From a plasmid: a stretch of 64,000 nt of DNA. The position numbers and the translations under genes were made by a program. The stretch lies in sequence record NZ_CP102839.1; one strand, 5' to 3'. Positions 7,757-20,215 of the stretch are shown here, piece after piece (the first letter of the stretch is position 1; each line of letters opens with the position of its first letter). Under the pieces are notes generated by a model, which saw only the letters and a program-made list of their open reading frames with translations, was not told the origin of the DNA and did not search any database.

Positions 7757-8731
7757 ATGCGTATTTTTGTTGACGACGGTTCCACCAATATCAAACTGGC
7801 ATGGGTGGCAGACGGTGAAGTGAAAACGTTGATCAGTCCGAACAGCTTTAAACCAGAATGGTCCATGACGCTGCTGACTGATTCAACGGGGCCGGCTTCC
7901 GCCAACTATGAAATTGACGGGGAAAAGTACAGCTTTGACCAGCTGAGCCCTGATGCCGTGCGCACCACGGAAACCCGCTATCAGTACAGTGATGTGAATG
8001 TAGTCGCTATCCACCACGCGCTGATGCAGTCCGGCATTGAACCGCAACCGGTTGACATTGTTGTGACGCTGCCGCTGGGCGAGTATCTGGATGAGAACGA
8101 TCAGCCTGATATGGCCAAAATCGAGCGGAAAAAAGCGAACGTGAAACGCGCGGTGACCGTTCAGGGGCATGAGAGCTTTACCGTGCGTAAAGTCAGTGTG
8201 CTGCCAGAGTCGGTCCCTGCAGGCTTCAGTGTGCTGAAGGATCTGGACGATCTGGACTCCCTGCTGATTGTCGATATCGGTGGAACGACGCTGGATATCG
8301 CGCACGTTCGCAGCAAAATGTCCGGGTTCACCAAGACGCATTGCGATCCTAAAACCGGCGTATCCATCATCACCGAGGCCGTAAAACACGCACTGGATAC
8401 CAGCGTGAGTACCCGTACCAGTTCATATTTTGCCGACCGTCTGATCCAGGCGCGAAATGACGATAGTTTTCTTTCCCGTTATCTTCAGAACGCTGACCAG
8501 CGGGCCCAGGTAATGAAGGTGCTGCACGAGCGTGAAAAAGCCCTGACGCACCGCGTCACCGATTCAGTTGGCCGCTTTGCCGGCTTCACACACGTCATGG
8601 TTGTCGGGGGCGGCGCCAGCCTGGTCGCCAGCGCAGTGAAGCAGGCCACGGGGGTGAGTGACGATCGCTTCTTCGTCAGCGATAACCCGCAGTTCGATCT
8701 GGTATTGGGCATGGTGGCAATGAAGGGCTGA
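7757..8731 (+). CDS. parM: ParM/StbA actin-like plasmid segregation ATPase
   Basis: MRIFVDDGSTNIKLAWVADGE...NSF...YSFD..SPDAV.TT...QYSDVNVVA.HHAL...IERKKANV...DIGGTTLDI...HVMVVGGGA closely parallels R1 ParM. The ORF-track start at 7607 is an upstream in-frame extension. The true start is ATG 7757. Confidence 0.9.
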   Translation: MRIFVDDGSTNIKLAWVADGEVKTLISPNSFKPEWSMTLLTDSTGPASANYEIDGEKYSFDQLSPDAVRTTETRYQYSDVNVVAIHHALMQSGIEPQPVDIVVTLPLGEYLDENDQPDMAKIERKKANVKRAVTVQGHESFTVRKVSVLPESVPAGFSVLKDLDDLDSLLIVDIGGTTLDIAHVRSKMSGFTKTHCDPKTGVSIITEAVKHALDTSVSTRTSSYFADRLIQARNDDSFLSRYLQNADQRAQVMKVLHEREKALTHRVTDSVGRFAGFTHVMVVGGGASLVASAVKQATGVSDDRFFVSDNPQFDLVLGMVAMKG

Positions 8732-8733
8732 GT

Positions 8734-9177
8734 ATGACTGATAACCGTAAGTGCTCGTTTTATATCTATCCGGATCGCAATGCGGCGGACCGGGTAGCCG
8801 ACGGATTTCTTGAGAAACTGCCTCAGAAAGAGCGCGGCCGCGCGATGCGCGCCATGATGCTCTGTGGTGCCGCGCTGATGAAACAGGACGAACGCCTGCC
8901 GTTCCTGATCGCTGAATTTCTGACGGAAGGCACCTCGATGCAGGATATTCAGCGGATCATCAGCAGTACGCTGCCGCAGCAGGATACAGGAGAGATGGCG
9001 CGTCTGTTTGAGGCGTTTCTGCAGGCCACCGGCGGCGCCAGTAATACGTTACCGCCGACAGGCGGATCAAGGCCGGAAAACAGCCCTGCCGTGACTCCCG
9101 AACCGGCGGCACCGGAGGATAAGAATCTGGAAGAAACCCGTAAGAACGTCCAGCATCTGTTCCCGGATGATGACTAA
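8734..9177 (+). CDS. parR: ParR/StbB centromere-binding adaptor
   Basis: Immediately follows parM. ...PQKERGRAMRAMMLCGAALMKQDERLPFLIAEFLTEGTSMQDIQRIISS parallels R1 ParR. Confidence 0.75.
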   Translation: MTDNRKCSFYIYPDRNAADRVADGFLEKLPQKERGRAMRAMMLCGAALMKQDERLPFLIAEFLTEGTSMQDIQRIISSTLPQQDTGEMARLFEAFLQATGGASNTLPPTGGSRPENSPAVTPEPAAPEDKNLEETRKNVQHLFPDDD

Positions 9178-9281
9178 GGTGAACTTCCGCGCCATCGCTG
9201 ACAGCTCTAATGTGGAAAATGTGGTGCTGATCAGCGGTGTGCCTGCAGCAGCGGCAGACACTCTGCCGCCGGCAATTTAAC

Positions 9282-9357
9282 TTGATTATATGGCTCATTC
9301 GCCGTATTGTTAAGGCTCATTTTTCGGTAGCGCCCCGCCTGGCGAAGGAGTAAAACC
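9282..9357 (+). promoter_or_regulatory. leading-region promoter/leader cassette, degenerate copy 1
   Basis: TTGATT at 9282, then ggctcatt core, then gGTAGCGCCCCGcCTGGCGaAGGAG block ending 6 nt before ATG 9358. Confidence 0.5.
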
Positions 9358-9864
9358 ATGCAATCATTCCCCCTGTTCGTTTCCCGTGCTGTACCGGTGA
9401 TCATCAGTGACCATTGCCTGCGGCAGCAGCGCAGCTCCCTGCACCACACGTCATGCCAGATTAACCTGAGTTCAGGAAGTCACCTGCGCTCATGGCCTTT
9501 CTGCACGCTATCCAGGCGGGAAATAAGCGACCGGCAACCGGCTAAGCCCCGCGGTTACTGGTTCAGTCACTGTGGCCGGGATGTCATGTTTACGGGGCAT
9601 ATCGATGAGGCAGATCCTATGAAACAGGTCTACTACAACGAAGGCTGGAGCGGTTCGAGCAAGTATACGTTTGAAGTTTATCAGCAGGAGAACGGGAGTT
9701 ACCGGGCGCTGGTCCGCAAATGGAATGGCAAAATCAATAAGGTGCAGCAGGAAACACAGTACCTGTCTGACACGCGAGAGGGACTGAAACTCCAGGACTA
9801 TCCCCGCACGCGCCAGGTGAAAATATTTCTGAATTCTGACTTCTGGGAGAAGGGTGATGATTAA
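9358..9864 (+). CDS. hypothetical protein, first ORF of the leading-region array
   Basis: The start is fed directly by the conserved GGAG leader block. 168 aa with no recognisable domain. An internal alternative start MKQVYYNEG at 9619 has a GAGG RBS. Confidence 0.45.
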   Translation: MQSFPLFVSRAVPVIISDHCLRQQRSSLHHTSCQINLSSGSHLRSWPFCTLSRREISDRQPAKPRGYWFSHCGRDVMFTGHIDEADPMKQVYYNEGWSGSSKYTFEVYQQENGSYRALVRKWNGKINKVQQETQYLSDTREGLKLQDYPRTRQVKIFLNSDFWEKGDD

Positions 9865-10354
9865 GATGGTTAGCGTCGTTCCGCAGCCGGAAACGGTGAA
9901 GATGCTCCGGGGAAAAATGGGCATGACTGAAACCGCATTAGGGGCCGTCATGGGGTATGAACTGCGCGCCTGGCAGCGTAAGGAAGCCATCAGCGACGAC
10001 CTCAGTCAGTACAACAAGACCAGTCTTCGGCCGGGCGAATATAACATGCTGATGCTGATCGCCGGCGTGCATCCTGATTACCGCCTGAACAGGACATTCA
10101 GCCCGGATGATATGGTTAAAGAGCCTGCCACGGCCGAAGACGTTCGCCGCCTGCGTCTGGCGCTGGGGCTGAAACACGCAGAAATTGCAGCGCTGTTTGG
10201 CTATAAGCCGGCGTCATGGCAGACCAAAGAGAAGGCCGCACAGCGTGGCGTGAAGCTCAAGACCGGGGAATTCAACTTCCTGTTACTGCTGGCCGGTGAG
10301 CATCCGTCACTGCAGCTGGTTGAAAAAGTGAAACAAGATCAGCTGCCGACCTGA
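9854..10354 (+). CDS. tandem-HTH DNA-binding protein (internal duplication)
   Basis: Two homologous halves, each with an HTH-like segment ending ...LIAGVHP and ...LLAGEHP. There is no similarity to a known regulator that I can name. Confidence 0.5.
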   Translation: MMIKMVSVVPQPETVKMLRGKMGMTETALGAVMGYELRAWQRKEAISDDLSQYNKTSLRPGEYNMLMLIAGVHPDYRLNRTFSPDDMVKEPATAEDVRRLRLALGLKHAEIAALFGYKPASWQTKEKAAQRGVKLKTGEFNFLLLLAGEHPSLQLVEKVKQDQLPT

Positions 10355-10471
10355 TAAAAGCCCGTTAATTCTGGTTTTTTTATAAAATACTGTATTTACA
10401 TATAGGACAAAATGTCCTAATATATATTTGTGGCCGGGCAAGGTGCTCAGGTCCCCTACCGAGGGAAATAT

Positions 10472-10921
10472 ATGAAATTTTCAGCAGAAGAACTCAACAT
10501 TATCCGCCAGGCGGATGCCATTATTGCCAGCAAAATTACCACCACGGATTTTATTACCGGTGCAGACGCCGCGCGTTCCTTGCTGCGGTTTCGTCTTGCT
10601 GCAGAACCACGCGAATCATTCTGCGCGTTCTTTCTCAACAGTCAGAATGGCGTGATCGCCTTTGAAGAACTGTTTCAGGGAACTATCAACAGTGTCACCG
10701 TTCATCCGCGTATCGTCCTGCAACGCGCCCTGCATCATAATGCCGCCGCCGTGGTACTGGCGCATAACCATCCTTCCGCTTTCACTGAACCCAGTCAGGC
10801 TGACAAGCTGATCACCGAGCGTCTGGCGCAGGTGCTGGGGATGGTTGACGTCAAAGTCCTCGATCACCTGATTGTGGGCGGCTGCGATATTTTCTCTTTT
10901 GCTGAACATGGTCTGATTTGA
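10472..10921 (+). CDS. RadC-like JAB/MPN domain protein (UPF0758)
   Basis: ...AVVLAHNHPSAFTEPSQADKLIT... is the JAMM-like H-x-H-x7-S-x2-D motif of the RadC/YeeS family, which is common in plasmid leading regions. RBS GAGGGA before ATG 10472. Confidence 0.8.
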   Translation: MKFSAEELNIIRQADAIIASKITTTDFITGADAARSLLRFRLAAEPRESFCAFFLNSQNGVIAFEELFQGTINSVTVHPRIVLQRALHHNAAAVVLAHNHPSAFTEPSQADKLITERLAQVLGMVDVKVLDHLIVGGCDIFSFAEHGLI

Positions 10922-10965
10922 CAACCGCGGCCGCACAGTGGTGCGGCCGGCTCTGGAGGCTTGCT

Positions 10966-11232
10966 ATGGGCAATAAATATACCGTGCCACTGAACGTGGG
11001 CGCAATCCGCGAAAGCTGTTTCCGTCCCGCTGACAAATGGACCCCGCCGACGGGGGATGAACTCCGCTATTTGCTGGAAAATGTGCTCAACCTGAGTCAG
11101 GAGGGGCTTGCGCGACATGTTGGCGTTAACGGCAGAACGGTGCGCCGCTGGGTGAACGGAGAAAGCGACATCGCGTATTCCGTCTGGTGCATCCTTTGCA
11201 TCGATGCCGGCTTACCGCCGATCTGGAAATAG
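10966..11232 (+). CDS. small HTH-domain protein
   Basis: MGNKYTVPLN...LSQEGLARHVGVNGRTVRRWVNGES is an HTH. GGAGG RBS. Preceded by a GC hairpin. Confidence 0.5.
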   Translation: MGNKYTVPLNVGAIRESCFRPADKWTPPTGDELRYLLENVLNLSQEGLARHVGVNGRTVRRWVNGESDIAYSVWCILCIDAGLPPIWK

Positions 11233-11779
11233 CAGCGCAAAACACCGGCGCGAAAATGTGCTTCCTGAAGAGAAGCTGAAGGGCTTGTGCAACTGCGAAC
11301 CGCAGTACCGAACATCGGTACTGGAATCCAGTGAGGGGCTGAGCCGCTATCTGGCCGGGGCTGAAAACTGAGAAGGTGGCCGCCTCCTGCAGGGGCTGTA
11401 CGGGCATTAAACCTGTATTGCTCTGAAACGCGCTGTACGCCTCTCTGAGTGCTTCTTTAAAAAAGCTGCAACCTTCTCGCATTAATCGCTTTGACGTGTC
11501 CAGGCGCGCATTCAGCCCCATTCTGATTTGATTTCGGCCTGGTATTTGCCAGTGAGCCTACTTTAGATATCCGCAGAGCGTTTCCTTCCTGTTCATTTCA
11601 GGTCAGTTGCCGTCATTCCCTGGTGGCTCCACCGTTCCCTCAGCGGGTTCAGGCTATCGCGGGTGTCTGATGCCTGGACCTCTGCACCATGCCGGCAAAG
11701 TGCCGCCATCTGGATCTAAAAGCAATATTTACAGGGACAGGCGTCAAGGGAAAAACAAAGAAAAGTAATCATATAATGC

Positions 11780-11874
11780 TTGCTTTATATGGCTCATTAG
11801 ACGTATAATAATCACATCGAAAGGCAATGAGGCTTTTCGCGGTAGCGCCCCGACTGGCGCAGGAGTAAAAAATT
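11780..11874 (+). promoter_or_regulatory. leading-region promoter/leader cassette, copy 2
   Basis: TTGCTT at 11780, 18-nt spacer, TATAAT at 11804, hairpin (ggctcatt/aatgaggc), GTAGCGCCCCGACTGGCGCAGGAG, then ATG 11875. Confidence 0.7.
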
Positions 11875-12054
11875 ATGAGTAAAGCACTGACCCCTTCCCA
11901 GCTTAAAGCTGAACTGGACACGCAGAAAGATGCGCTGCTGAAGGCGTGCCTGTATGCCCTCAACGAAATCCCTAACCGCCGTTTAAGTGGTCCATATTCA
12001 TCCACGTATGCGCTGGCCGCGCAGGTCAGTAAACTGCTCCAGAGCTGCAAATAA
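11875..12054 (+). CDS. hypothetical 59-aa protein (below the ORF-track cutoff)
   Basis: MSKALTPSQLKAELDTQKDALLKACLYALNEIPNRRLSGPYSSTYALAAQVSKLLQSCK sits directly behind cassette copy 2. It is followed by a GC hairpin at 12063-12081. Confidence 0.45.
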   Translation: MSKALTPSQLKAELDTQKDALLKACLYALNEIPNRRLSGPYSSTYALAAQVSKLLQSCK

Positions 12055-12094
12055 TCATTGAAGGGCTGGCATTACCAGCCCTGTTCAACCCTTA

Positions 12095-12126
12095 CGGTAG
12101 CGCCCCGCATGGCGCAGGAGTCTGAA
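12095..12126 (+). promoter_or_regulatory. partial cassette, 3' leader block only
   Basis: cGGTAGCGCCCCGcaTGGCGCAGGAGtctgaa then ATG 12127. Confidence 0.5.
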
Positions 12127-12987
12127 ATGTCATCTAAAAATACTCTCCCGTCAGTCGATCTGATGTACTGCCAGCATGGCGGTGAAGTGATCCCGTCCAT
12201 TGCTATTGAGCGCATCATCTCGTTGCGGGATGAAGGTATCCGCGTCTATCTCGACGGCATAGACAAGCTGCGAAAAGCGCGCGATCTGATGCAGCAGGCC
12301 GGAGGCTGCCAGTACCTCTATGACTACGACAAAGCCGTAGAGAGCGCCATCAAATGGAGCGACACCACGCCAGATCAGGCCGAAACGGCTATTTCCCGCG
12401 TTATCGACGGAAAAATCTGGGATCGGCTGATGACGGAAACCGGTATGTATACGCTGATGAGCAACAAGCAACGTCAGGAATGGGATCGGCAGGTGGCAGG
12501 CAAAGAAATGCCGCCGATAACGCTGGATAACGTTATGAGTACGTTCCGGCACCTGAACGCAAGCAAGGCTGATACCTTCACGCAAGGGCTGATTGATATC
12601 TTTAAATCCCTGTCGTGGGATTATAAAACCAATAACCCCTGCATGTTTGGCAAGCGTATCATCATCGCGCCGTTGCTCGATGTCTGGCGCAGTGGCTGGG
12701 TGCGCTTCAGCTCAGACGGGCACACCAAAATTGACGATCTGGCGCGGCCGTTCTACGTGCTGGACGGGCGTAACGTGCCTGATTACCGCGTTTCTGACGG
12801 TGCCAGACTGGATGCCTTTTTCAGTGAAAACCAGTTCAACGGTAAGGTGTTCGAGTGTGATTACTTCAGCGTGCGATATTACAAAAAGGGCAGCGCCCAC
12901 ATTACGTTTAAACGCCCGGAGCTGGTTGAGAAGATCAATAATCTGGTTGCCAGTCACTATCCCGGAATGTTACCCCCTCGCGTGTAA
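12127..12987 (+). CDS. hypothetical 286-aa leading-region protein
   Basis: MSSKNTLPSVDLMYCQHGGEV... is fed by the leader block. It is the largest unknown ORF in the array and has no recognisable motif. The ORF-track start 12058 is an upstream extension. Confidence 0.6.
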   Translation: MSSKNTLPSVDLMYCQHGGEVIPSIAIERIISLRDEGIRVYLDGIDKLRKARDLMQQAGGCQYLYDYDKAVESAIKWSDTTPDQAETAISRVIDGKIWDRLMTETGMYTLMSNKQRQEWDRQVAGKEMPPITLDNVMSTFRHLNASKADTFTQGLIDIFKSLSWDYKTNNPCMFGKRIIIAPLLDVWRSGWVRFSSDGHTKIDDLARPFYVLDGRNVPDYRVSDGARLDAFFSENQFNGKVFECDYFSVRYYKKGSAHITFKRPELVEKINNLVASHYPGMLPPRV

Positions 12988-13082
12988 TGCAGACGGCAGG
13001 CCGCATTTGCGGCCTGAAATATAAACAGGGAAAGGAAGTATTCCCCGGCCTGAGAAAATCATGCCGGGCATGTATTTATTGC

Positions 13083-13176
13083 TTGAATAATATGGCTCAT
13101 TAGACGTATAATGATCACATCGAAAGGCAATGAGGCTTTTCGCGGTACCGCCCCGACTGGCGCAGGAGTAATAAAC
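13083..13176 (+). promoter_or_regulatory. leading-region promoter/leader cassette, copy 3
   Basis: TTGAAT 13083, 18-nt spacer, TATAAT 13107, hairpin, GTAcCGCCCCGACTGGCGCAGGAG, then ATG 13177. Confidence 0.7.
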
Positions 13177-13515
13177 ATGGCTATTCAATCCCTTCAGTTC
13201 CGTAACGGCTCCGTTTCTCTTGGTGATGTTTTTGTTTCCAGCTGGGGTTATGAGCAGACAAATACCTGTTTTTATCAGGTGATCGCCCTGCGCGGTAAGA
13301 AAACCGCTGTACTGCGCCGCATCGCTGCGCAGCAGGTGAAAGCAGACAGTGCAATGTCTGGCGAGTTAAAGCCGGTATTGAACGACTTTAAAGGCGAACC
13401 CGTGACCCGTCGCATCTGTGAAAACCATGAGCATCCGTCTGTCAGCATTGACGAGTACGAACAGGCTTATAAGACCGATCCTAACGAAAGCCATTTTTAC
13501 AGCACCTGGGGCTGA
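13177..13515 (+). CDS. hypothetical 112-aa protein
   Basis: MAIQSLQFRNGSVSLGDVFV... sits behind cassette copy 3. Confidence 0.55.
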   Translation: MAIQSLQFRNGSVSLGDVFVSSWGYEQTNTCFYQVIALRGKKTAVLRRIAAQQVKADSAMSGELKPVLNDFKGEPVTRRICENHEHPSVSIDEYEQAYKTDPNESHFYSTWG

Positions 13516-13612
13516 CCGCCTGCCACGCCCCGCAAGGGGCGTATAGTCGAAGACTTATTCAACCAAAACGTGAATACTATGCGAAATAACAAGGCGCTCA
13601 GGACGCAGATAC

Positions 13613-13843
13613 ATGGCGGAAACAGTTTATCAGGCGCGGAGGCGTTTTTACCTTCTCCGTTTTCGGCGCAGTCGTAACCCGGACACACTGGAAAAAATGT
13701 ACGAATCCATGCGGGATCGTGGACAGGTGCCGGAGGAGGACACCGCGGCTTTTGAGGCTGCCGCCGACCATCGCCGCGCAGAGCTGGCATCGGGATGCAT
13801 CTGGGATAAGATCCCGCCGCATGTCTGGCAGTATGTAAAATAA
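13613..13843 (+). CDS. hypothetical 76-aa protein
   Basis: MAETVYQARRRFYLLRF... has no cassette upstream and only a weak RBS. It is followed by a rho-independent terminator. Confidence 0.4.
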   Translation: MAETVYQARRRFYLLRFRRSRNPDTLEKMYESMRDRGQVPEEDTAAFEAAADHRRAELASGCIWDKIPPHVWQYVK

Positions 13844-13848
13844 TCACA

Positions 13849-13873
13849 GCGCCCCCACGAGGGGCGTTTTTTT
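13849..13873 (+). terminator. rho-independent terminator
   Basis: gcgcccccacgaggggcg stem followed by T7. Confidence 0.6.
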
Positions 13874-13903
13874 GCTTGCGCATATGTCTCATTAGACGTA
13901 TAA
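13870..13903 (+). promoter_or_regulatory. partial cassette, promoter half only
   Basis: TTGCTTgcgcatatgtctcattagacgTATAAT. The leader half is replaced by unrelated sequence. Confidence 0.45.
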
Positions 13904-13954
13904 TGTTTTTACTGATTCAAATCAGTACCTTCCTAAATAGCCTTACAGGTGCAT

Positions 13955-14068
13955 TATGACCTCTTCTGAAATCCTCCATAACCTCCCTCAGATTATCACG
14001 GCCGTGGCCGCCCTCATTACTGCCATTACCGGGCTGATTAAAGTCATGAAGGATAAGGGTAAGGACTG
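13955..14068 (+). CDS. putative 37-aa single-helix membrane peptide
   Basis: MTSSEILHNLPQIITAVAALITAITGLIKVMKDKGKD: hydrophobic core with a basic tail. Lies behind the partial promoter copy and is followed by a GC hairpin. Confidence 0.3.
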
Positions 14069-14104
14069 AACCGCCGCAGGGGGCGACAGCCCCCTGCATC
14101 CCTA

Positions 14105-14141
14105 ACCGGCAGCGCCCCGACTGGCGCAGGAGTAAAAAAAA
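14105..14141 (+). promoter_or_regulatory. partial cassette, 3' leader block only
   Basis: ccGGcAGCGCCCCGACTGGCGCAGGAGtaaaaaaaa then GTG 14142. Confidence 0.5.
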
Positions 14142-14378
14142 GTGACAACGCTGCATATTCAAGACATTCCCACTGATGGCGCGCCGCCTGTTTGTGCAGG
14201 CCGCTCAATCTCAGATGATGACCTTTGCGCCTCATGCCAGCATCTCGACTATCGCCCTGGGCACCTCAGCGCCTGCCTGCTGTCAGGTTGCGGGCGTGAC
14301 GACTGGCCTTCAGAACTGGATGCAAACGGCTACAGCGTTGCCTGTAGCGGCTATGAGCGTGAAAAATCGCTTGATTAA
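14142..14378 (+). CDS. hypothetical Cys-rich 78-aa protein (GTG start)
   Basis: ...CAGRSISDDDLCASCQHLDY...CLLSGCG...VACSGYE has at least 7 Cys, so it is possibly metal-binding. Confidence 0.45.
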   Translation: MTTLHIQDIPTDGAPPVCAGRSISDDDLCASCQHLDYRPGHLSACLLSGCGRDDWPSELDANGYSVACSGYEREKSLD

Positions 14379-14462
14379 CATGGCTCATTAGACGTACAAT
14401 AATTACATCGAAAGGCATCCGGTCTTTCGCGGCAGCGCCCCGTCTGGCGCAGGAGTTTTACA
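14371..14462 (+). promoter_or_regulatory. leading-region promoter/leader cassette, copy 4
   Basis: TTGATT 14371, 18-nt spacer, TACAAT 14395, hairpin, GcAGCGCCCCGtCTGGCGCAGGAG, then ATG 14463. Confidence 0.65.
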
Positions 14463-14873
14463 ATGCACGGTAACGTAAATGAAATTTGCGCAAGGCTTCT
14501 CGACAGTTTTGATCCACAGCAGCGGATCAGCCTGCTGATCTGGACTGCTGAAGATGTCCATGACTGCACCAGTGATATGAACCTCACTGACGATGAGGCC
14601 GAAGCCGTTCTGGCAGAAATCGCGGAATGCAGTTCACACAGCCGTTATGGCGTCGGAAAAGATACCGTCTGGAGCCTGGCAAAGCAGGTGCGCGAAGATG
14701 CCGCCCGCGATCGAAAAATAGAGGTCAATGCCGAGGCGCTGCAAAAAGTCGTGGCGCTGGCGGCGCAGTTTATCCGGCTGGAAGAAATCCAGTCTGGTGA
14801 AGGAGCTGCACGCCGACTTTATCCGCAGGAGTCTGAGGCGCTGGAGTGCATCACGAAGGTGATTAACGGCTAA
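14463..14873 (+). CDS. hypothetical acidic 136-aa protein
   Basis: MHGNVNEICARLLDSFDPQQ... is strongly acidic (D/E-rich), which is compatible with a DNA-mimic but unproven. Confidence 0.55.
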   Translation: MHGNVNEICARLLDSFDPQQRISLLIWTAEDVHDCTSDMNLTDDEAEAVLAEIAECSSHSRYGVGKDTVWSLAKQVREDAARDRKIEVNAEALQKVVALAAQFIRLEEIQSGEGAARRLYPQESEALECITKVING

Positions 14874-14900
14874 TTCACGCAGTAACGCAGCGAACTTTCA

Positions 14901-14934
14901 CAGTAGCGCCCCGACTGGCGCAGGAGGAAAAAAC
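14901..14934 (+). promoter_or_regulatory. partial cassette, 3' leader block only
   Basis: caGTAGCGCCCCGACTGGCGCAGGAGgaaaaaac then ATG 14935. Confidence 0.5.
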
Positions 14935-15240
14935 ATGTCCCAGAATGAAGCCTATTACGACACGCTGGCCCTGATTGAAAAGGGGCAATGGTGTTTCGGC
15001 AGTATGGACGAAGAAAACGAAGAGCGGGCAATCAAGGCCGCTAAGGCGCTGGCGCTGTTTGCGCGCCTGAATGAGCAGGACTGCGACGGACACCCGGTTT
15101 CCGAAATCATCGTTGATTTTATCGCTAACCTGATGCACCTGGGGGAAGCGATAAATTTTCGTGTGCTCGATGAGGAAAGCGCGGTGATCCCGTTGGTCAG
15201 GATCGCAGCCGTACACTTTAACGCTGAAACAACGTCATAG
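14935..15240 (+). CDS. hypothetical acidic 101-aa protein
   Basis: MSQNEAYYDTLALIEKGQWCFGSMDEENEE... sits behind the leader block. Confidence 0.55.
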   Translation: MSQNEAYYDTLALIEKGQWCFGSMDEENEERAIKAAKALALFARLNEQDCDGHPVSEIIVDFIANLMHLGEAINFRVLDEESAVIPLVRIAAVHFNAETTS

Positions 15241-15307
15241 TAATCATGTGAATCAGAAGGGGGCAGGCGTGATCCTGCCCCCAAAAATGGACAGGGGAAA
15301 GAGTTCT

Positions 15308-15343
15308 CCCGCCTGAAAATATTCAGGCAGGCGGGAATATTTT
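15308..15343 (+). terminator. rho-independent terminator
   Basis: cccgcctg...caggcggg stem followed by a T-rich run, immediately before cassette copy 5. Confidence 0.55.
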
Positions 15344-15345
15344 GC

Positions 15346-15439
15346 TTGATTAATATGGCTCATTAGACGTATAATAATCACATCGAAAGGCAATGAGGCT
15401 TTTCGCGGTAGCGCCCCGACTGGCGCAGGAGTACAGAAA
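15346..15439 (+). promoter_or_regulatory. leading-region promoter/leader cassette, copy 5
   Basis: TTGATT 15346, 18-nt spacer, TATAAT 15370, hairpin, GTAGCGCCCCGACTGGCGCAGGAG, then ATG 15440. Confidence 0.7.
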
Positions 15440-15880
15440 ATGTCTACTGAACTGAATCAACCCGCCATCACTGCACGCATTATCCCCAATAACCGCCGCA
15501 TGGCCTTTCTGCCACGCCTGTTCGGCGCCTGGTATCTCACAGGTGAGGCCGGTGTCTACAACCACGCACGTTCTCTCTGCGCCGATTATCAAGGCGGTTC
15601 CTGGGAGTTCGCCGAACTGTCTTGCGGTAGCGGCTTCATGTACCCACTGAGCGCAGAGCGCTTCACGGTATCGGTTAGCGGTAACTGGTTCGAAGGGGAA
15701 CTGTCCGCAGAAGCTACCGGTATCGTGCTGACCCTGTTCACCCTGAACCACATGATCTGGCACGCACATGATGCCGGCTATGAGCACATCTGCGACATGC
15801 TGATCACCCAGCAGGAAAAGCTCAAATTATATGCCGACCAGCACGCCGAAGCCGGTTTGATTTACCGCGCGATTGACTGA
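15440..15880 (+). CDS. ArdB/KlcA-family antirestriction protein
   Basis: ...AFLPRLFG...GEAGVY...LCADYQGGSWEFAEL..GSGFMYPL...GNWFEGELSAEATGIVLTLFTLN...LIYRAID matches the conserved KlcA/ArdB pattern (FLP..FG, LC..Y.GG.W, GF.MAP, GELSA.AAGIV.TLFAL, IYRAID). Confidence 0.8.
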   Translation: MSTELNQPAITARIIPNNRRMAFLPRLFGAWYLTGEAGVYNHARSLCADYQGGSWEFAELSCGSGFMYPLSAERFTVSVSGNWFEGELSAEATGIVLTLFTLNHMIWHAHDAGYEHICDMLITQQEKLKLYADQHAEAGLIYRAID

Positions 15881-15923
15881 AGCGGCGGCCCCCGCGAGGG
15901 GGCCAATACTGACAGGGGGAAAA

Positions 15924-16208
15924 ATGTTAACACTAACTGATATTCGCGCCAGCAATACGGTGCTGGTTACGGAATTTGACGGCGTGCGTGCTGTGCATTT
16001 CTGTCTGCATGAAAAATTAAGCGGTAGCGACAACGATCTGTGGTTTCCGCTTGCCAATGGGGCCGACCTGTTCGAGGCACTGGAAAGCATTATGTGCATC
16101 AATTTTGCCGCTGCTAACGTTGTCTCGCTGGAGTTCCTGCGGCAGAACGGGAAGTGCAAAGACTACCGGATCACCTACAACAAGGCCAAATTCAAGCCAT
16201 TATGTTAG
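15924..16208 (+). CDS. hypothetical 94-aa protein
   Basis: MLTLTDIRASNTVLVTEFDG... has a GGGGGA RBS. The ORF-track start 15873 is an upstream extension through a GC hairpin. Confidence 0.5.
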   Translation: MLTLTDIRASNTVLVTEFDGVRAVHFCLHEKLSGSDNDLWFPLANGADLFEALESIMCINFAAANVVSLEFLRQNGKCKDYRITYNKAKFKPLC

Positions 16209-16271
16209 ATATCTGACATCATTAAATGTTCATATTTGAACAAAATTAAATTAAAAAATACGTCTGATAAG

Positions 16272-16364
16272 TTGATAAAATGGCTCATTAGACGTATAAT
16301 TATTACATCGAAAGGCAGTTGAGCCTTTCGCGGTAGCGCCCCGACTGGCGACGAGGTAAAAAAA
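16272..16364 (+). promoter_or_regulatory. leading-region promoter/leader cassette, copy 6
   Basis: TTGATA 16272, 17-nt spacer, TATAAT 16295, hairpin, GTAGCGCCCCGACTGGCGacGAGG, then ATG 16365. Confidence 0.7.
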
Positions 16365-16598
16365 ATGGAACTCAATGATACTGCAAAATTACCTGACTCT
16401 GATGCACGGAAAATTAACGCCGTAGCGTCTCAGGCATACCCTCTTGGCCTCCTGCCTAATCTGAAAATTAACTTCTACTCTATTGACGCCATTCAACTTG
16501 AACTGCGTGACAACAGTGGTGATCTTATCTGGCGAGATTTCACGTTCTCCCGCGATTTTATCAACGGTTTTATGCCTTATATCAGACCAATAAATTAG
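16365..16598 (+). CDS. hypothetical 77-aa protein
   Basis: MELNDTAKLPDSDARKINAV... sits behind cassette copy 6. Confidence 0.5.
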   Translation: MELNDTAKLPDSDARKINAVASQAYPLGLLPNLKINFYSIDAIQLELRDNSGDLIWRDFTFSRDFINGFMPYIRPIN

Positions 16599-16651
16599 CA
16601 CTGAATATCGACGGGAGCGGGGGAGAAACTCCCCCGGAAGGAGATTAAGAA

Positions 16652-16972
16652 ATGGTATTAACCGGTATTGAAACAGTAAAGGTAGCGGTGATCTGTACAG
16701 GCCACGTCAGCCATCAAGATTCAGAGATTATCCCTGAGTTTCTCTGGAACAACTGGAAAGAATCCGGAGAGTTCTGGATAAGCAGTACTGCTCACGGTTG
16801 GTTATTTCGGTTGTGTGCTCTGCCCGATGAATGGGAGGAGCGTCTGAAAAATTTTGGAGTAAGTGATGGCTGCATATCAAATCTTAGAGTGCTGGAATGT
16901 GAAGGATATGACTGGGTTCATTTCCAGGCTGATGCACCCATCGTGGAGGAGCTTCAGCACTGGGACTGGTAA
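16652..16972 (+). CDS. hypothetical 106-aa protein
   Basis: MVLTGIETVKVAVICTGHVSHQDSEIIPEF... has a GGAGA RBS preceded by a gggagcgggggagaaactcccccgg hairpin. Confidence 0.5.
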   Translation: MVLTGIETVKVAVICTGHVSHQDSEIIPEFLWNNWKESGEFWISSTAHGWLFRLCALPDEWEERLKNFGVSDGCISNLRVLECEGYDWVHFQADAPIVEELQHWDW

Positions 16973-17074
16973 AAATCTGGAACACTAAAGGGGGTTTAAA
17001 AAGCAGAGAAAAAAAGGGAGCCGGATTGCGAGAACAATCCGGCAGGTTGACAAAAGAAAATGTGAGGTTTGCTT

Positions 17075-17206
17075 ATGTCATTATCCATTCTACAGCTTGC
17101 CGAGGATCTTGCAAAGGGTAAGCGAATGAGAGTACCACCGATGAACGGACCGGAGTGGCGACACTTCTGTTTCTGGCTTGAATATTACATGGGATACAGT
17201 ATGTAA
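17075..17206 (+). CDS. putative 43-aa ORF
   Basis: MSLSILQLAEDLAKGKRMRVPPMNGPEWRHFCFWLEYYMGYSM is followed 10 nt later by a + strand terminator. It competes with the antisense ORF 17073-17267, and the terminator polarity favours the + strand. Confidence 0.3.
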   Translation: MSLSILQLAEDLAKGKRMRVPPMNGPEWRHFCFWLEYYMGYSM

Positions 17207-17215
17207 AGTAACGAA

Positions 17216-17243
17216 CGGCGCTCATGGAAGCGCCGTTTTTTTT
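17216..17243 (+). terminator. rho-independent terminator closing the leading-region array
   Basis: ggcgctcatggaagcgcc stem followed by T8. Confidence 0.65.
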
Positions 17244-17263
17244 AACTTTCAGCAGGGGGAATT

Positions 17264-17605
17264 TCACGCCTGGACTGGCGTTTTATCATCAGTAGATGAA
17301 GAGACCCGCTTTCTCTGACGTGTTCTTTTTCCTTCAGTAATCTCTTTTAAATCTTTAAGCGTCACGTCATGAAAACCAAAGTTTTTAAGGTGCTCAAGGA
17401 TTTCGCTGAGTGTGTATCCCTTGTTTTTAATCAGCGTCTCAATATCACTTTTCAGGGAATCAAGTACATCTCGTTTCTGTAATCTTTCTTGCGTCACATC
17501 TGGGAGTTCAGCCAGCTGACCTCGAATAGATTCGATGTCTGTTGTGCTGTACAGCTTCGATTTTTTGGCAACCATTCTGGAATCCTCCACCGGAAAATTT
17601 TTCAT
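17264..17605 (-). CDS. hypothetical Lys-rich protein adjacent to oriT
   Basis: MKNFPVEDSRMVAKKSKLYSTTDIESIRGQLAELPD... has a basic C-terminus. The ORF-track start 17683 is an upstream extension. Confidence 0.4.
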   Translation of the reverse strand: MKNFPVEDSRMVAKKSKLYSTTDIESIRGQLAELPDVTQERLQKRDVLDSLKSDIETLIKNKGYTLSEILEHLKNFGFHDVTLKDLKEITEGKRTRQRKRVSSSTDDKTPVQA

Positions 17606-17689
17606 TGTATCTACCGAAAAAATCATTACAAGCAGAGCAGAATTTTCTGCGTAAAAATTTGGATAACCAGCTCCGGAAATCATAATCCC

Positions 17690-17972
17690 TTAGCGTTAGA
17701 GGAAGCGTAGCCTATCCCGTTCTCTGTGAAACACAGGCGATGATGTGCCTTGCATGAATATCAATATACCTGAACTAGCGCAGCGTACTCCCTTTGTCAT
17801 CTGGCATACAGGTTGCAAATTTGCTAAACTCATTCGCGAAGTTCAAAAGCGGGACAGGATATGTTTTGTATTACCGCCACCACGGTGGCAGCAATCCAAA
17901 ACTCCTGGTCAGGGCGAAGCCCCGACACCCCAGACTGTGCTAACTGTTGGACTGAAAGGAAGATTTAGCGTC
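17690..17972. promoter_or_regulatory. putative oriT / nikA promoter region
   Basis: Non-coding region immediately upstream of nikA, where oriT lies in R64-type systems. Contains the palindrome gccaccacggtggc around 17870-17885. The nick site is not identifiable by eye. Confidence 0.3.
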
Positions 17973-18284
17973 ATGAGTAAGAGTGAGCGACGTAACAGAA
18001 CAGCCACTCTTCCGCCGGTAAGGTGCCTTCCGGAAGAGCGGGATGAGATACGTCAAAAGGCGGAGGATGCGGGTCTCAGCATAGGTGCATTTATGCTTAG
18101 GGCTGCGTTAGGAAGGAAGATTGCTCCGCAGACAGATCACAAGCTCATTAACGAACTCTCACGTCTTGGCGGTTTACAGAAGCATCTCTTTAAAGAAGGG
18201 AACGGGGTCGGCAGTAAGGAGTACGCAGAGATACTGCAGGCCATCAAGGCAGCCATTTTCAGGATAGAGCAAAAGAACGACTAA
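17973..18284 (+). CDS. nikA: NikA-like ribbon-helix-helix relaxosome accessory protein
   Basis: MSKSERRNRTATLPPVRCLPEERDEIRQKAEDAGLSIGAFMLRAALGRKI..TDHKLINELSRLGGLQKHLF..G...GSKEYAEILQAI parallels R64 NikA (RHH core, TD...L.EL.RLG..QKHLF, KEYAE). The ORF-track start 17745 is an upstream extension. AAGGAAG RBS. Confidence 0.75.
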   Translation: MSKSERRNRTATLPPVRCLPEERDEIRQKAEDAGLSIGAFMLRAALGRKIAPQTDHKLINELSRLGGLQKHLFKEGNGVGSKEYAEILQAIKAAIFRIEQKND

Positions 18285-18286
18285 AT

Positions 18287-20215
18287 ATGAACGCCATCAT
18301 TCCACCCAAACGTCGCGACAGAAAGTCCAGCTTTGTTCAGCTGGTCGCGTATGTTTCCGTGCGTGATGATGTTCCGTTAAAAGACGAGCTGAAAGAAGAC
18401 GAGCGTTTCCAGCGTCCGTCGCGTTCCCGCCAGGCCATTTTTGATCGCCTTGTTGACTACATGAACCGTAGTGAAGGAACGATCATTGAACAGATTTCTG
18501 ATATGACTCCTGAAGGTGATATACGCTGTTCTGTTGACGGTGTTATCTGCCAGCATAACCTGATGTCAGTTGAAACAGCTGCAATGGAGATGAACAGCAT
18601 TGCCATGCAGAACACGCATGTTAAGGACGCGGTTTATCACTATATCCTGAGCTGGCAGGAAGATGAAAATCCATCTGACGATCAGGTTTTTGACAGTGTT
18701 AAACACTCACTCAAACGCCTGGGTATGGAAGAGCACCAGTACGTAGCGGCGATTCACCGTGACACGGATAATCTGCATGTTCATATTGCTGCTAACCGCG
18801 TTCACCCGGTTTCTTATCGCGCGGCTAATGTCTGGAATGACGCGGATAAACTTCAGCGTACCTGCCGGGAACTGGAACTGAAGCACGGATTTAAAGTGGA
18901 TAACGGAAGCTGGGTTCGTGATGCTGACAACAACATTGTGCGGGCCAGAAAAGGGTATCGCAATGCACCACGTTCAGCGCGACAGCTTGAACACTTCTCT
19001 GATAAAGAGTCCCTTCATCATTTTGCAGTCCAGCATGTTCGTAAGCCTGTTAATGCCATGTTCCGTGAGAAGAACGCGTCATGGGAAAAACTGCATCAGG
19101 TCATGAATGATGCTGGTTTAATGTTAGAGACTTCCGGCAAAGGGCTGATCGTGCGTGATGTGTGTGGCGACGAGAAACTGGCCGTTAAATCATCGCGGGT
19201 TCACCCTGGTATGACGCTTTCCCGTCTTGAGCCTGCGCTGGGAACCTTTGTTCCCTCACCACGTTCTGCGGAAATGGTTAAGCAAAGTGTTCAGACGTCT
19301 TACAGTGACAAACTGCATGTCCGCGATCGTGGTGCCCGTGCGGAGCGCCGGCAGGCACGCGCTGACGCCCGTATCGATTTGCGCGAACGCTACGAGAAGT
19401 ACCGCAACGCCTGGAAAAAACCTGACCTTCATGCCGCTGAACGATTCCGGGCTGTGTCCGCTGCATTTAAAGAACAGAAGACCCATATCCGGGATAACGA
19501 GAAAGACGCGCATATGCGTAAGCTCATGTACCACATCGTGGAGTTTGAACGTGAGAAGTCGATGGCAGCGCTGCGTATTGCACTGAAGGCAGAACGCCAG
19601 AAGTTGTATGACGAGGGCATGATGCGGCCGCTGACCTACCGTGCCTGGACCGAACAACAGGCGCTTCACGGCGATCAGGCTGCGCTCAGTCAGTTGCGTG
19701 GCTGGTCTTACCGACAGAATCGTAAAAACCGGACACCGCAGGCCTCTGACAATATTATTTACTGTGCACCTGCAGATGACACCTCGTTGCTCAAAGCAGA
19801 TGGTTACGAGGCCCGCCTGCATCGTGACGGCGCGGTTGTCTATTCCCGCCAGGGGCAGGATGCCATCATTGATCGGGGAGACCGCGTTGAAGTCATTAAT
19901 CCGTATGATGACGGTGACCTCAACACGCGCATTGCCGTTGACATGGTGGCCTGGAAATCAGGCGAGCGTGTCGAATTCAGCCGGGATGGCAGTTTCGCTT
20001 ATGCTGCCGGCGATGCGGTGGCTGCACACAACCTGCATCATCGTGACAGTATCATCGTGCCGAGTGACCGGGAACAATACGACTATACGCGGGAGAAGTT
20101 TAACCAGCTGAAAGGCCGGTATACGGACAGTGAACGGGAAGCACTTCGTCAGCAATATGACGATCGTTATTACGACGATGTTCGCCACAATGACGACAGT
20201 AGTTATAAGCCATAA
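18287..20215 (+). CDS. nikB: MOBP-family relaxase (NikB-like)
   Basis: ...AIHRDTDNLHVHIAANRVHP... is the 3-His HxDxDNxHxH relaxase motif. It sits directly after nikA. 642 aa, shorter than R64 NikB at roughly 900 aa. Confidence 0.8.
   Translation: MNAIIPPKRRDRKSSFVQLVAYVSVRDDVPLKDELKEDERFQRPSRSRQAIFDRLVDYMNRSEGTIIEQISDMTPEGDIRCSVDGVICQHNLMSVETAAMEMNSIAMQNTHVKDAVYHYILSWQEDENPSDDQVFDSVKHSLKRLGMEEHQYVAAIHRDTDNLHVHIAANRVHPVSYRAANVWNDADKLQRTCRELELKHGFKVDNGSWVRDADNNIVRARKGYRNAPRSARQLEHFSDKESLHHFAVQHVRKPVNAMFREKNASWEKLHQVMNDAGLMLETSGKGLIVRDVCGDEKLAVKSSRVHPGMTLSRLEPALGTFVPSPRSAEMVKQSVQTSYSDKLHVRDRGARAERRQARADARIDLRERYEKYRNAWKKPDLHAAERFRAVSAAFKEQKTHIRDNEKDAHMRKLMYHIVEFEREKSMAALRIALKAERQKLYDEGMMRPLTYRAWTEQQALHGDQAALSQLRGWSYRQNRKNRTPQASDNIIYCAPADDTSLLKADGYEARLHRDGAVVYSRQGQDAIIDRGDRVEVINPYDDGDLNTRIAVDMVAWKSGERVEFSRDGSFAYAAGDAVAAHNLHHRDSIIVPSDREQYDYTREKFNQLKGRYTDSEREALRQQYDDRYYDDVRHNDDSSYKP

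Follow-up and report, generated by a model that had tools for sequence, protein, structure and literature searches.

Here, we describe a short promoter cassette that recurs in a window of 64,000 nt of plasmid record NZ_CP102839.1 (the window is the whole stretch of DNA analyzed, and positions refer to it). The record is of a resistance plasmid related to pOXA-48, and the cassette precedes most of the genes in its predicted leading region, through which a plasmid begins its entry into a recipient. A preliminary description of this DNA, centered on positions 11,780–16,364, had pointed to a repeated unit in front of several genes. Between positions 9282 and 16364, seven promoter units and nine copies of a hairpin-forming 24-nt sequence, the box (GTAGCGCCCCGACTGGCGCAGGAG), precede genes that include those for a KlcA/ArdB-type antirestriction protein and for Orf20, a protein with two Xre-type helix-turn-helix (HTH) domains. 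The promoter units are five full cassettes, one truncated cassette, and one promoter-only copy; all units and boxes are on the + strand, and every cassette gene is oriented toward oriT/mobA/traI (table 1). A full cassette is ∼95 nt long and consists, in order, of a −35 hexamer, 17–18 nt, the −10 hexamer TATAAT, a first hairpin (hairpin 1), the box, and a Shine–Dalgarno (SD) sequence.

Promoter Cassettes Are Repeated in Front of Plasmid Genes

The repeat is real, and its parts are found where they had been claimed. When up to three mismatches were allowed, eight copies of the box were found, all on the + strand, versus none in 100 shuffled sequences; a ninth copy, the hybrid GGCGACGAGG, is at 16333. 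Within the 64 kb, the motif of the promoter spacer, TGGCTCATTAGACGTAT, is confined to the seven claimed sites, with 0.06 sites expected. The preliminary description had placed the module before six genes. Five of these have a full copy, and the copy before the gene at 9358 is truncated, lacking hairpin 1 and having a weak −10 hexamer (TATTGT). As had been proposed, the distance from AGGAG to the start codon, an A-rich stretch, is 6–9 nt, and the 3′ leader block alone precedes the genes at 12127, 14142 (a GTG start), and 14935. The promoter half that had been reported to stand alone near 13870 is located at 13876–13904, where it is predicted to drive a 37-codon open reading frame (ORF). With these box-alone and promoter-alone copies, the proposal of a modular unit of promoter, 5′ untranslated region (UTR), and SD with separable submodules holds. 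The predicted 5′ UTR is ∼60 nt long, and the interval between −35 and −10 has the spacer sequence ATGGCTCATTAGACG, the motif of which persists even in copies that have otherwise diverged (those at window positions 9282 and 13876 and at position 9824 of locus L003). The cassette is predicted to be a near-consensus sigma70 promoter that acts on double-stranded DNA and is joined to a portable 5′ UTR.

Leader RNAs Are Predicted to Fold into Two Hairpins

Each leader folds into two hairpins, hairpin 1 (CGAAAGGC/GCUUUUCG, with loop AAUGAG) and the box hairpin (loop CCGACU), and the SD, a consensus AGGAG that the box hairpin directly abuts, is left free. Covariation in hairpin 1, a check that the preliminary description had suggested, was assessed in 25 distinct leaders of type A, the type of the window, which were anchored on the −10 and the box only and with pairing ignored. 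Across these leaders, 99% of cells are paired, and compensatory double changes are present in four of eight pairs (two-sided changes are GC<->CG, five times; AU to GC, one and four times; and GC/GU/AU). The covariation score was reached by none of 500 shuffles, and shifted 3′ partners lower pairing to 39–49%. The alignment also holds 22 G·U cells. The inner four pairs of the box are intact in 28–29 of 29 distinct copies from six lineages. Its stem, CGCC/GGCG, is mostly invariant, with a few changes to U·G or to G·U and one double change to CACC/GGUG, misplaced by MAFFT in one row of the alignment, whereas its outer pair is variable (GC, UA, AU, GU, and mismatches). All one-sided changes still pair, as G·U, when read on the sense strand, whereas its complement would have C·A mismatches, which places the structures in the mRNA and not in the transferred DNA strand. 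These patterns support hairpin 1 and the box hairpin as real RNA structures on the sense strand.

Two leader hairpins had been claimed previously. The CGCC/GGCG hairpin of the box is real, but the other, GGCTCATT...AATGAGGC, cannot be one, since its 5′ arm falls in the promoter interval from −35 to −10 and thus precedes the predicted start; moreover, its 3′ arm is replaced at 14366, at 16266, and in several copies of pOXA-48. An Rfam cmscan of positions 8500–18500 found no match at E ≤ 1. Across otherwise diverged lineages, the primary sequence of the box, including loop CCGA and 5′ flank GGUA, is kept, a conservation that fits an additional role as an RNA operator like those of Aca2 and Aca1.

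Cassettes and Candidate Regulators Co-occur across Plasmid Lineages

pOXA-48 itself has ten boxes and nine promoter units, and a search of other plasmids, as had been suggested, uncovered the box or cassette in further lineages with differing cargo. Analogous cassettes of diverged sequence are present in seven plasmid lineages. Type B is from pIncFII_3846, type C from a Rosenbergiella plasmid, type D from IncX-like Serratia plasmids, and type E from a metagenome plasmid; variants of type A are in plasmids of Erwinia aeris and K. oxytoca, and analogous cassettes are also in IncX1 plasmids and in IncX3 plasmids with blaNDM-5. A homolog of orf20 is located within the same leading region in every cassette lineage. 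Orf19C, an 81-aa protein encoded next to Orf20, is also encoded in each lineage except IncX1, in which the 81-aa product of the neighboring gene is not detectably similar to Orf19C (20% identity over 15 residues). Identities between lineages are 35–55%. The regulator operon is preceded by a cassette remnant with a weak −10 in types A and B and by the box in types D and E. VirBR of IncX3 was considered and rejected, as it is a different gene (85 aa, L143 5417–5674).

The form of the spacer follows that of the regulator. In IncX1 and IncX3, regulators have a single HTH domain and spacers are perfect palindromes with 7-bp arms (ACCTGCA-AA-TGCAGGT and ACCATCA-TT-TGATGGT). These palindromes take up the entire spacer and terminate within the −10, and their arms differ symmetrically between the two plasmids. 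In plasmids whose Orf20 joins two different HTH domains in tandem, the corresponding spacer is asymmetric, though conserved. We therefore read the spacer as a candidate operator. Alleles of cassette and regulator are also matched in PLSDB: the type B cassette (at least 99% identity) and Orf20-B (at least 99%) are each in 55 records, and the type A cassette is in 1166–1168 records and Orf20-A (at least 90%) in 1162.

Of 620 places found in a scan of 5,426 complete E. coli genomes, 609 are on plasmids. Matches in a metagenome scan for the box were mostly due to chance in GC-rich soil contigs, and the real ones are in type A and type D plasmid contexts only. A viral scan gave two matches, both due to chance, and about half of nine loci found in a scan of a genome collection with a pattern of the −10 and initially transcribed sequence (ITS) are likewise chance matches. 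The repeated cassette is not described in any paper found by a full-text search, which left out the original pCTX-M3 and pEL60 sequence papers.

A Proposed Regulon Repressed by Orf20

Orf20 is 97% identical to Orf20 of pOXA-48 (DNDJGHEP_0014). Matches of its two Xre HTH domains to Pfam and NCBIfam are weak, its AlphaFold2 (AF2) model has a predicted local distance difference test (pLDDT) score of 87, and among Xre proteins in the PDB, its domains have Aca10, Aca1, and Aca2 among their best, albeit weak, matches. The AF2 model of Orf19C (pLDDT 93) has a four-stranded sheet and two helices; this fold, beta-beta-beta-beta-alpha, weakly resembles single-strand binders such as Pur-alpha and PC4-like proteins. 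Work on pOXA-48 that used transposon sequencing and CRISPR interference found orf20 to be essential for maintenance; recipients of an orf20-deletion plasmid filament and stop dividing, and deletion of orf19 is neutral (PMC12365149, PMC12361523). Neither of these 2025 studies named what Orf20 controls (PMC12365149, PMC12361523).

We consider it probable, though with some reserve, that the cassettes form a regulon that is repressed by Orf20 and induced upon entry into a new cell. Each copy would be a self-contained expression unit for one leading-region gene with a role in establishment or antidefense. Orf20 would bind the conserved spacer between −35 and −10 and repress all cassette promoters, whereas Orf20 and Orf19C would be expressed from the weaker, truncated cassette. 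Because of its location behind a cassette copy, Orf20 would be autoregulated. In a new recipient, which would lack the repressor, all units would fire together once the complementary strand is synthesized. This burst would yield the antirestriction protein, DUF4942, DUF1380, Hha, and other cargo, and the buildup of Orf20 would then turn the units off. The essentiality of orf20 in pOXA-48 is proposed to reflect the derepression of seven to nine strong promoters that its loss would cause. In the leader, hairpin 1 would stabilize the mRNA at its 5′ end, much as the ompA leader does, and the box would hold the SD exposed and insulated from upstream cargo sequence, which may be why the box alone is found before operon-internal genes. 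In addition, the box is possibly an RNA operator. Since the units are identical, we propose that they double as sites of homologous recombination that shuffle cargo.

Several points weigh against this proposal. The transcription starts of the promoters and the binding of Orf20 are predictions. Gene conversion between copies could account for a spacer that is conserved within one plasmid, and co-occurrence of cassette and orf20 is in part trivial linkage inside plasmid lineages. The spacer of types A–E shows no clear repeat or palindrome (4–5 of 7 positions are symmetric in type A, and type B resembles TGTC-N4-TGTC); because of this lack of clear symmetry, the operator of these types is left undefined. 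Regulator genes of the Rosenbergiella plasmid (L010) do not have their own cassette promoter, and the same is true of those of IncX1 as far as that locus was read. H-NS/Hha-type silencing or another regulator could instead control the cassette promoters. As for the leader, thermodynamic z-scores of single leaders are unremarkable, hairpin 1 of types B, C, and E begins only ∼7 nt after the predicted 5′ end, a long way off for a protector of that end, and a purely structural role does not account for the conservation of loop CCGA and flank GGUA of the box. Assignment of Orf20 as the regulator of the cassettes is plausible. The preliminary description had suggested coordinated regulation by a posttranscriptional binder; coordinated regulation is plausible as well, and the better-supported regulator appears to be Orf20, which would act through the promoter spacer and perhaps also through RNA.

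The annotated 168-aa orf19 (9358–9864) looks bipartite, with a poorly conserved frame of 87 codons that starts from the box-SD-ATG and is followed by Orf19C. In many records, Orf19C is annotated as an 81–92-aa "sugar ABC transporter substrate-binding protein," which is a misnomer. We also considered Orf19C as a toxin of the RelE/MqsR type with Orf20 as its antitoxin. This is unlikely because the fold is not RelE-like and because polar insertions in orf19 are depleted even though its deletion is neutral.

Alternative Explanations

The first alternative extends the proposed Orf20 regulon rather than excluding it. In addition to acting on DNA, Orf20 or Orf19C may bind leader RNA, at the box or hairpin 1, and hinder ribosome access, in a dual control like that of Aca2; on this view, the boxes before internal genes and before the regulator operon would serve as translational operators. 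The layout is that of Aca regulators, in which the promoter holds a DNA motif, an RNA motif directly follows the transcription start, and the position of the start codon is fixed; as in Aca systems, one regulator would serve several operons, and RNA motifs also lie between genes of an operon (PMC13551039). By both sequence and fold, the Orf20 domains match Aca10, Aca1, and Aca2 best, but these matches are weak (E of 0.04 for sequence and greater than 0.3 for Foldseek) and generic for Xre HTH domains, and RNA binding by Aca10 was not seen in vitro (PMC13551039). The primary sequence of the box, loop included, is kept where all else has diverged, and in types D and E, it is the sole part of the cassette before the regulator operon; in IncX1 and IncX3, however, the hairpin at its position differs in sequence. 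The weak resemblance of the Orf19C fold to Pur-alpha and PC4-like single-strand binders speaks for dual control, and the lack of a phenotype of the orf19 deletion in pOXA-48 speaks against it. We regard dual control as a tentative idea that merits attention but is unlikely on balance.

Alternatively, cassettes could be unregulated, portable units of promoter and UTR, strong and constitutive or silenced only by H-NS/Hha, that spread by duplication and recombination, with the targets of Orf20 elsewhere. Gene conversion fits the identity of whole cassettes within a plasmid, cassettes serve as recombination junctions, the operator is undefined in types A–E, and potential silencers are at hand, as an Hha homolog is encoded in the region and IncL/M plasmids have an H-NS-like gene (PMC8125031). 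But such units would not be expected to have perfect palindromes in the spacers of IncX1 and IncX3, a spacer motif kept in the diverged copies, or matched alleles of cassette and Orf20. Nine unrepressed, near-consensus promoters would also be costly, and pOXA-48 requires orf20. We therefore judge this explanation to be improbable.

Control by a global RNA binder of the host (CsrA, ProQ, or Hfq) or by KorC is considerably less credible. A conserved leader beside the SD could be a site of posttranscriptional control, as the preliminary description had suggested for a CsrA/ProQ/FinO-like binder, and korC, like orf20, is essential in pOXA-48 (PMC12365149). Yet each leader has a single GGA, which is the SD, and none in a loop, whereas CsrA/RsmA targets have two or more, at least one of them in a hairpin loop and one overlapping the SD, and the leader lacks a U-tailed terminator hairpin at its 3′ end. 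The KorC-type palindrome TAGGACAAAATGTCCTA occurs only once in the 64 kb, at the promoter of korC itself, even when up to three mismatches are allowed. Because of this uniqueness, the palindrome is considered to be outside the cassette system and KorC is excluded as the cassette regulator. Moreover, L003 has cassettes, and korC was not seen at the L003 locus examined.

The preliminary description had also raised the possibility that the cassette is a counterpart of the Frpo/ssi single-strand promoters of F and IncI1, which would fold in the incoming transferred strand (T-strand) for transcription or priming before the complementary strand is made. The likeness lies in the leading-region location, in the T-strand as template, and in the early expression of establishment genes; Frpo, however, is a hairpin of ∼300 nt that forms a duplex of −35 and −10 in single-stranded DNA (PMC9849209, PMC11541004, PMC12672017). 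The cassette is ∼95 nt, its promoter is not self-complementary, and it is the RNA (sense) strand that carries its hairpins. Small hairpins could also form in DNA, but the predicted T-strand fold (− strand, 15245–15445) has only two short hairpins plus neighboring terminator hairpins. Apart from a 6-bp AT stem, the −35 and −10 hexamers are unpaired, and no promoter duplex is formed; hence, the promoter is predicted to need double-stranded DNA. Substitutions in the hairpins that keep pairing only as G·U are C·A mismatches on the T-strand, and the fold of noncoding positions 11233–11790 is not significant (z = −1.4). These features leave the idea of a single-strand promoter with hardly any credibility.

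Least credible, to a degree that we set it aside, is a generic REP/ERIC-like intergenic repeat unrelated to expression: a short GC palindrome does recur between genes, but all copies are on the coding strand, include the SD, and are tied to a start codon 6–9 nt away, 609 of the 620 places in E. coli are plasmid-borne, metagenome copies are only in plasmid leading-region contexts, chance GC-rich matches aside, and Rfam has no match.

Comparison with Known Systems

The closest functional analog of the Orf20 regulon proposed here appears to be the CUP/ArdK regulon of IncN plasmids, to which it is analogous and not homologous. As far as the CUP/ArdK-ArdR system of pKM101/R46 is described in PMC6289460 (citing Delver and Belogurov 1997), both systems have repeated, conserved elements with a promoter upstream of a number of genes in the leading region (in IncN, these are ardA, ardB, ccg, and others), coordinated expression of establishment and antirestriction genes, and repeats proposed as recombination sites. 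In IncN, a plasmid repressor binds the repeats and its own promoter; in the present system, such binding by Orf20 is a prediction. In contrast to the IncN elements, the present cassette is shorter (∼95 nt), carries a two-hairpin 5′ UTR and SD, and has a 3′ part that occurs alone in operons. The plasmid families also differ, being MOBP/MPF_I and IncX here versus MOBF/MPF_T IncN. BLASTP of Orf20 found no alignment with ArdK of R46 at E ≤ 100 and a best E of 0.89 over 14 residues with ArdR of R46. The box is absent from R46, with one match at one mismatch versus 1.9 expected in a search with the box pattern.

In architecture, the closest analog appears to be the antidefense operons controlled by Aca proteins. 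Shared features are an Xre-type HTH regulator, an operator that overlaps a strong promoter (predicted here), a structured RNA after the predicted start, a constant distance to the start codon, one regulator for several antidefense operons, intergenic RNA motifs in operons, and, as proposed here, the same logic of a burst at entry followed by shutoff (PMC13551039, PMC9410881). In the window, the HTH regulator is encoded next to the operons that it is proposed to regulate, and these have a DNA motif in the promoter and a covarying RNA hairpin after the predicted start. Unlike the Aca operons of phages, the cassettes are in leading regions of conjugative plasmids, and no known acr family is among the Pfam matches of the cargo, which was not subjected to a search aimed at Acr proteins. 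Orf20 further differs in that it combines two HTH domains in tandem and has a conserved partner of 81 aa, and its similarity to Aca proteins is at the generic level of the Xre fold.

The 5′ UTR stabilizer of ompA, reportedly described by Emory, Bouvet, and Belasco in 1992, is said to consist of a 5′-terminal stem–loop and a second hairpin next to the ribosome-binding site. Type A leaders resemble it in having a stem–loop 2–4 nt from the predicted 5′ end and a second hairpin upstream of an exposed SD, and in being portable. In types B, C, and E, by contrast, the first hairpin is ∼7 nt from the predicted 5′ end, and a stabilizer does not need the conservation seen in the box loop.

The kil-kor regulon of IncP and IncU plasmids has KorC operators at klcA, kleA, and kleC (PMC12365149). 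It is similar to the proposed regulon in that loss of a global plasmid repressor is lethal to the host and in that a KlcA-type antirestriction gene is a member (PMC12365149). Here, however, the KorC palindrome is at radC-korC only, and the klcA-like gene at 15440 is predicted to be driven by a cassette.

Cargo Genes and Plasmid Background

Pfam matches of the cargo are to Antirestrict (KlcA/ArdB), DUF4942, DUF1380, HHA, DUF5983, and RadC, and several ORFs are without a family. The gene at 15440, behind full cassette 4, encodes the KlcA/ArdB-type antirestriction protein (PF03230), and that at 14463, behind full cassette 3, encodes DUF1380. The set of cargo genes differs between related plasmids and gene order is permuted in L016. 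The 37-codon ORF behind the promoter-only copy is unannotated and hydrophobic. It is kept in pOXA-48 and in a diverged metagenome plasmid (L020, 13943–14046), and its product may be a small membrane peptide that adds to toxicity upon derepression. It was rejected as the DqlB toxin since dqlB sits between repA and trbC. GC-rich hairpins follow nearly every cargo gene (12063–12081, 13520–13545, 13848–13868, 14078–14099, 15259–15282, and 15885–15905); those with a T-run resemble terminators, and those without may be stabilizers of 3′ ends within operons.

The region is 100% identical to many 60–95 kb Klebsiella plasmids typed IncFII/MOBP/MPF_I. The cassette island (11619–16351) has 96.9% identity to pOXA-48 (IncL), and from 16270 on, the window matches pIncFII_3846 at 92.2% identity. 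Judged by these matches, the window is a leading region like that of pOXA-48 and IncL/M joined to a backbone of the pIncFII_3846 type. The plasmid is recombinant, with the switch between the two at 16270–16351 placing the junction inside the last cassette, the box of which is a hybrid of types A and B. The earlier suggestion that cassettes allow cargo to be swapped is supported by this junction and by the differences in cargo among related plasmids.

A nick-like site on the − strand (table 1) was recognized with the help of the nick sequences of IncI1 and IncP oriT. The nick consensus used for comparison is from PMC8125031. Given the strand of the nick-like site and the orientation of the genes, the region is predicted to be a leading region, and we infer the − strand to be both the strand that is transferred and the template of all cassette genes. 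Between korC and the first full cassette is a noncoding stretch of 550 bp (11233–11780) with crossing inverted repeats at 11370–11584.

Table 1. Positions of cassettes, cassette parts, and neighboring features. Positions are those of the window unless another locus is given.
Feature	Position	Strand	Details
Truncated cassette before orf19-orf20 operon	9282–9357	+	Box 9327–9350; without hairpin 1; ATG 9358
Promoter of truncated cassette	9282–9310	+	−35 TTGATT 9282–9287; 17-nt spacer with motif ATGGCTCATTCGCCG; weak −10 TATTGT 9305–9310
orf19C	9619–9864	+	Conserved 81-aa partner of orf20
orf20	9857–10354	+	165 aa; tandem Xre-type HTH domains; candidate cassette repressor
KorC-type palindrome TAGGACAAAATGTCCTA	10403–10419		Perfect; between −35 and −10 of radC(JAB)-korC operon
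Full cassette 1	11780–11874	+	−35 TTGCTT 11780–11785; −10 TATAAT 11804–11809; ATG 11875
Leader of full cassette 1	11818–11865	+	Hairpin 1 11818–11839; box 11842–11865 (stem 11845–11849/11856–11860); SD 11861–11865
Box alone, operon-internal	12097–12120	+	Before DUF4942 gene, ATG 12127; GC hairpin 12063–12081 upstream
Full cassette 2	13083–13176	+	−35 TTGAAT; −10 13107–13112; box 13145–13168; ATG 13177
Promoter-only copy	13876–13926	+	−35 TTGCGC; spacer ATATGTCTCATTAGACG; −10 13899–13904
5′-terminal hairpin of promoter-only copy, ACUGAUUCAAAUCAGU	13911–13926	+	Differs from hairpin 1
37-codon hydrophobic ORF, MTSSEILHNLPQIITAVAALITAITGLIKVMKDKGKD	13956–14069	+	Unannotated; behind promoter-only copy with its own 5′-terminal hairpin
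Box alone	14109–14132	+	Before GTG start 14142; hairpin GCAGGGGGCGACAGCCCCCTGC upstream
Full cassette 3	14371–14462	+	−35 TTGATT; −10 TACAAT 14395–14400; hairpin 1 loop AUCCG; box 14432–14455; ATG 14463
Box alone, operon-internal	14903–14926	+	Before ATG 14935
Full cassette 4	15346–15439	+	−35 TTGATT; −10 15370–15375; box 15408–15431; ATG 15440
Full cassette 5	16272–16364	+	−35 TTGATA; −10 16295–16300; hybrid box 16333–16356 (GCGCC..GGCGA CGAGG); ATG 16365
oriT nick-region-like sequence, CATATCCTG followed by TCCCGC	17849–17863	−	Adjoins inverted repeat; resembles IncI1 and IncL/M nick regions
oriT-like region	17849–17931	−	Inverted repeat GGGTGTCGGGGCTTCGCCCTGACC, then the nick-region-like sequence
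IncX1 98-nt cassettes	L004 1632–1729, 2544–2641		Palindromic spacer; GCCC..GGGC hairpin against GGGAG SD; near single-domain Orf20 homolog
IncX3 (blaNDM-5) 98-nt cassettes	L143 2725–2822, 4750–4847		Palindromic spacer; GCCC..GGGC hairpin against GGGAG SD; near single-domain Orf20 homolog

Implications for Early Gene Expression in Conjugative Plasmids

The cassette is a real and widespread feature, which we interpret as a repeated promoter cassette of leading regions under control of a repressor, with Orf20 as a plausible regulator. pOXA-48 and IncX3 plasmids with blaNDM-5 rank among the chief carriers of carbapenem resistance. For these plasmids, the map of cassettes offers a candidate Orf20 regulon of seven to nine identical strong promoters before antirestriction and establishment genes, and such a regulon, if true, gives a reason for the toxicity of orf20 loss. 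Its derepression could be a route to destabilize these plasmids, and the compact unit of promoter and UTR could serve as a portable part for expression.

A broader and more speculative possibility, to which we give only a small chance, is that cassettes, Orf20, and Orf19C constitute a widespread, undescribed control of early genes in which Orf20 or Orf19C also binds the RNA of the box and gates translation gene by gene. If true, this would be the plasmid counterpart of Aca2, which binds DNA and RNA, and would explain the essentiality of orf20. Its range would span IncL/M plasmids including pOXA-48, IncX1, IncX3 including plasmids with blaNDM-5, and relatives in Serratia, Erwinia, Rosenbergiella, and Xenorhabdus.

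Cassettes also appear to be recombination points at which antidefense cargo is exchanged between plasmids. A burst from double-stranded DNA in a cell free of repressor would differ from the use of single-strand promoters by F and IncI1. The recurrence of cassettes across plasmid families, with matched variants of regulator and operator, suggests a general strategy for early expression from double-stranded DNA.

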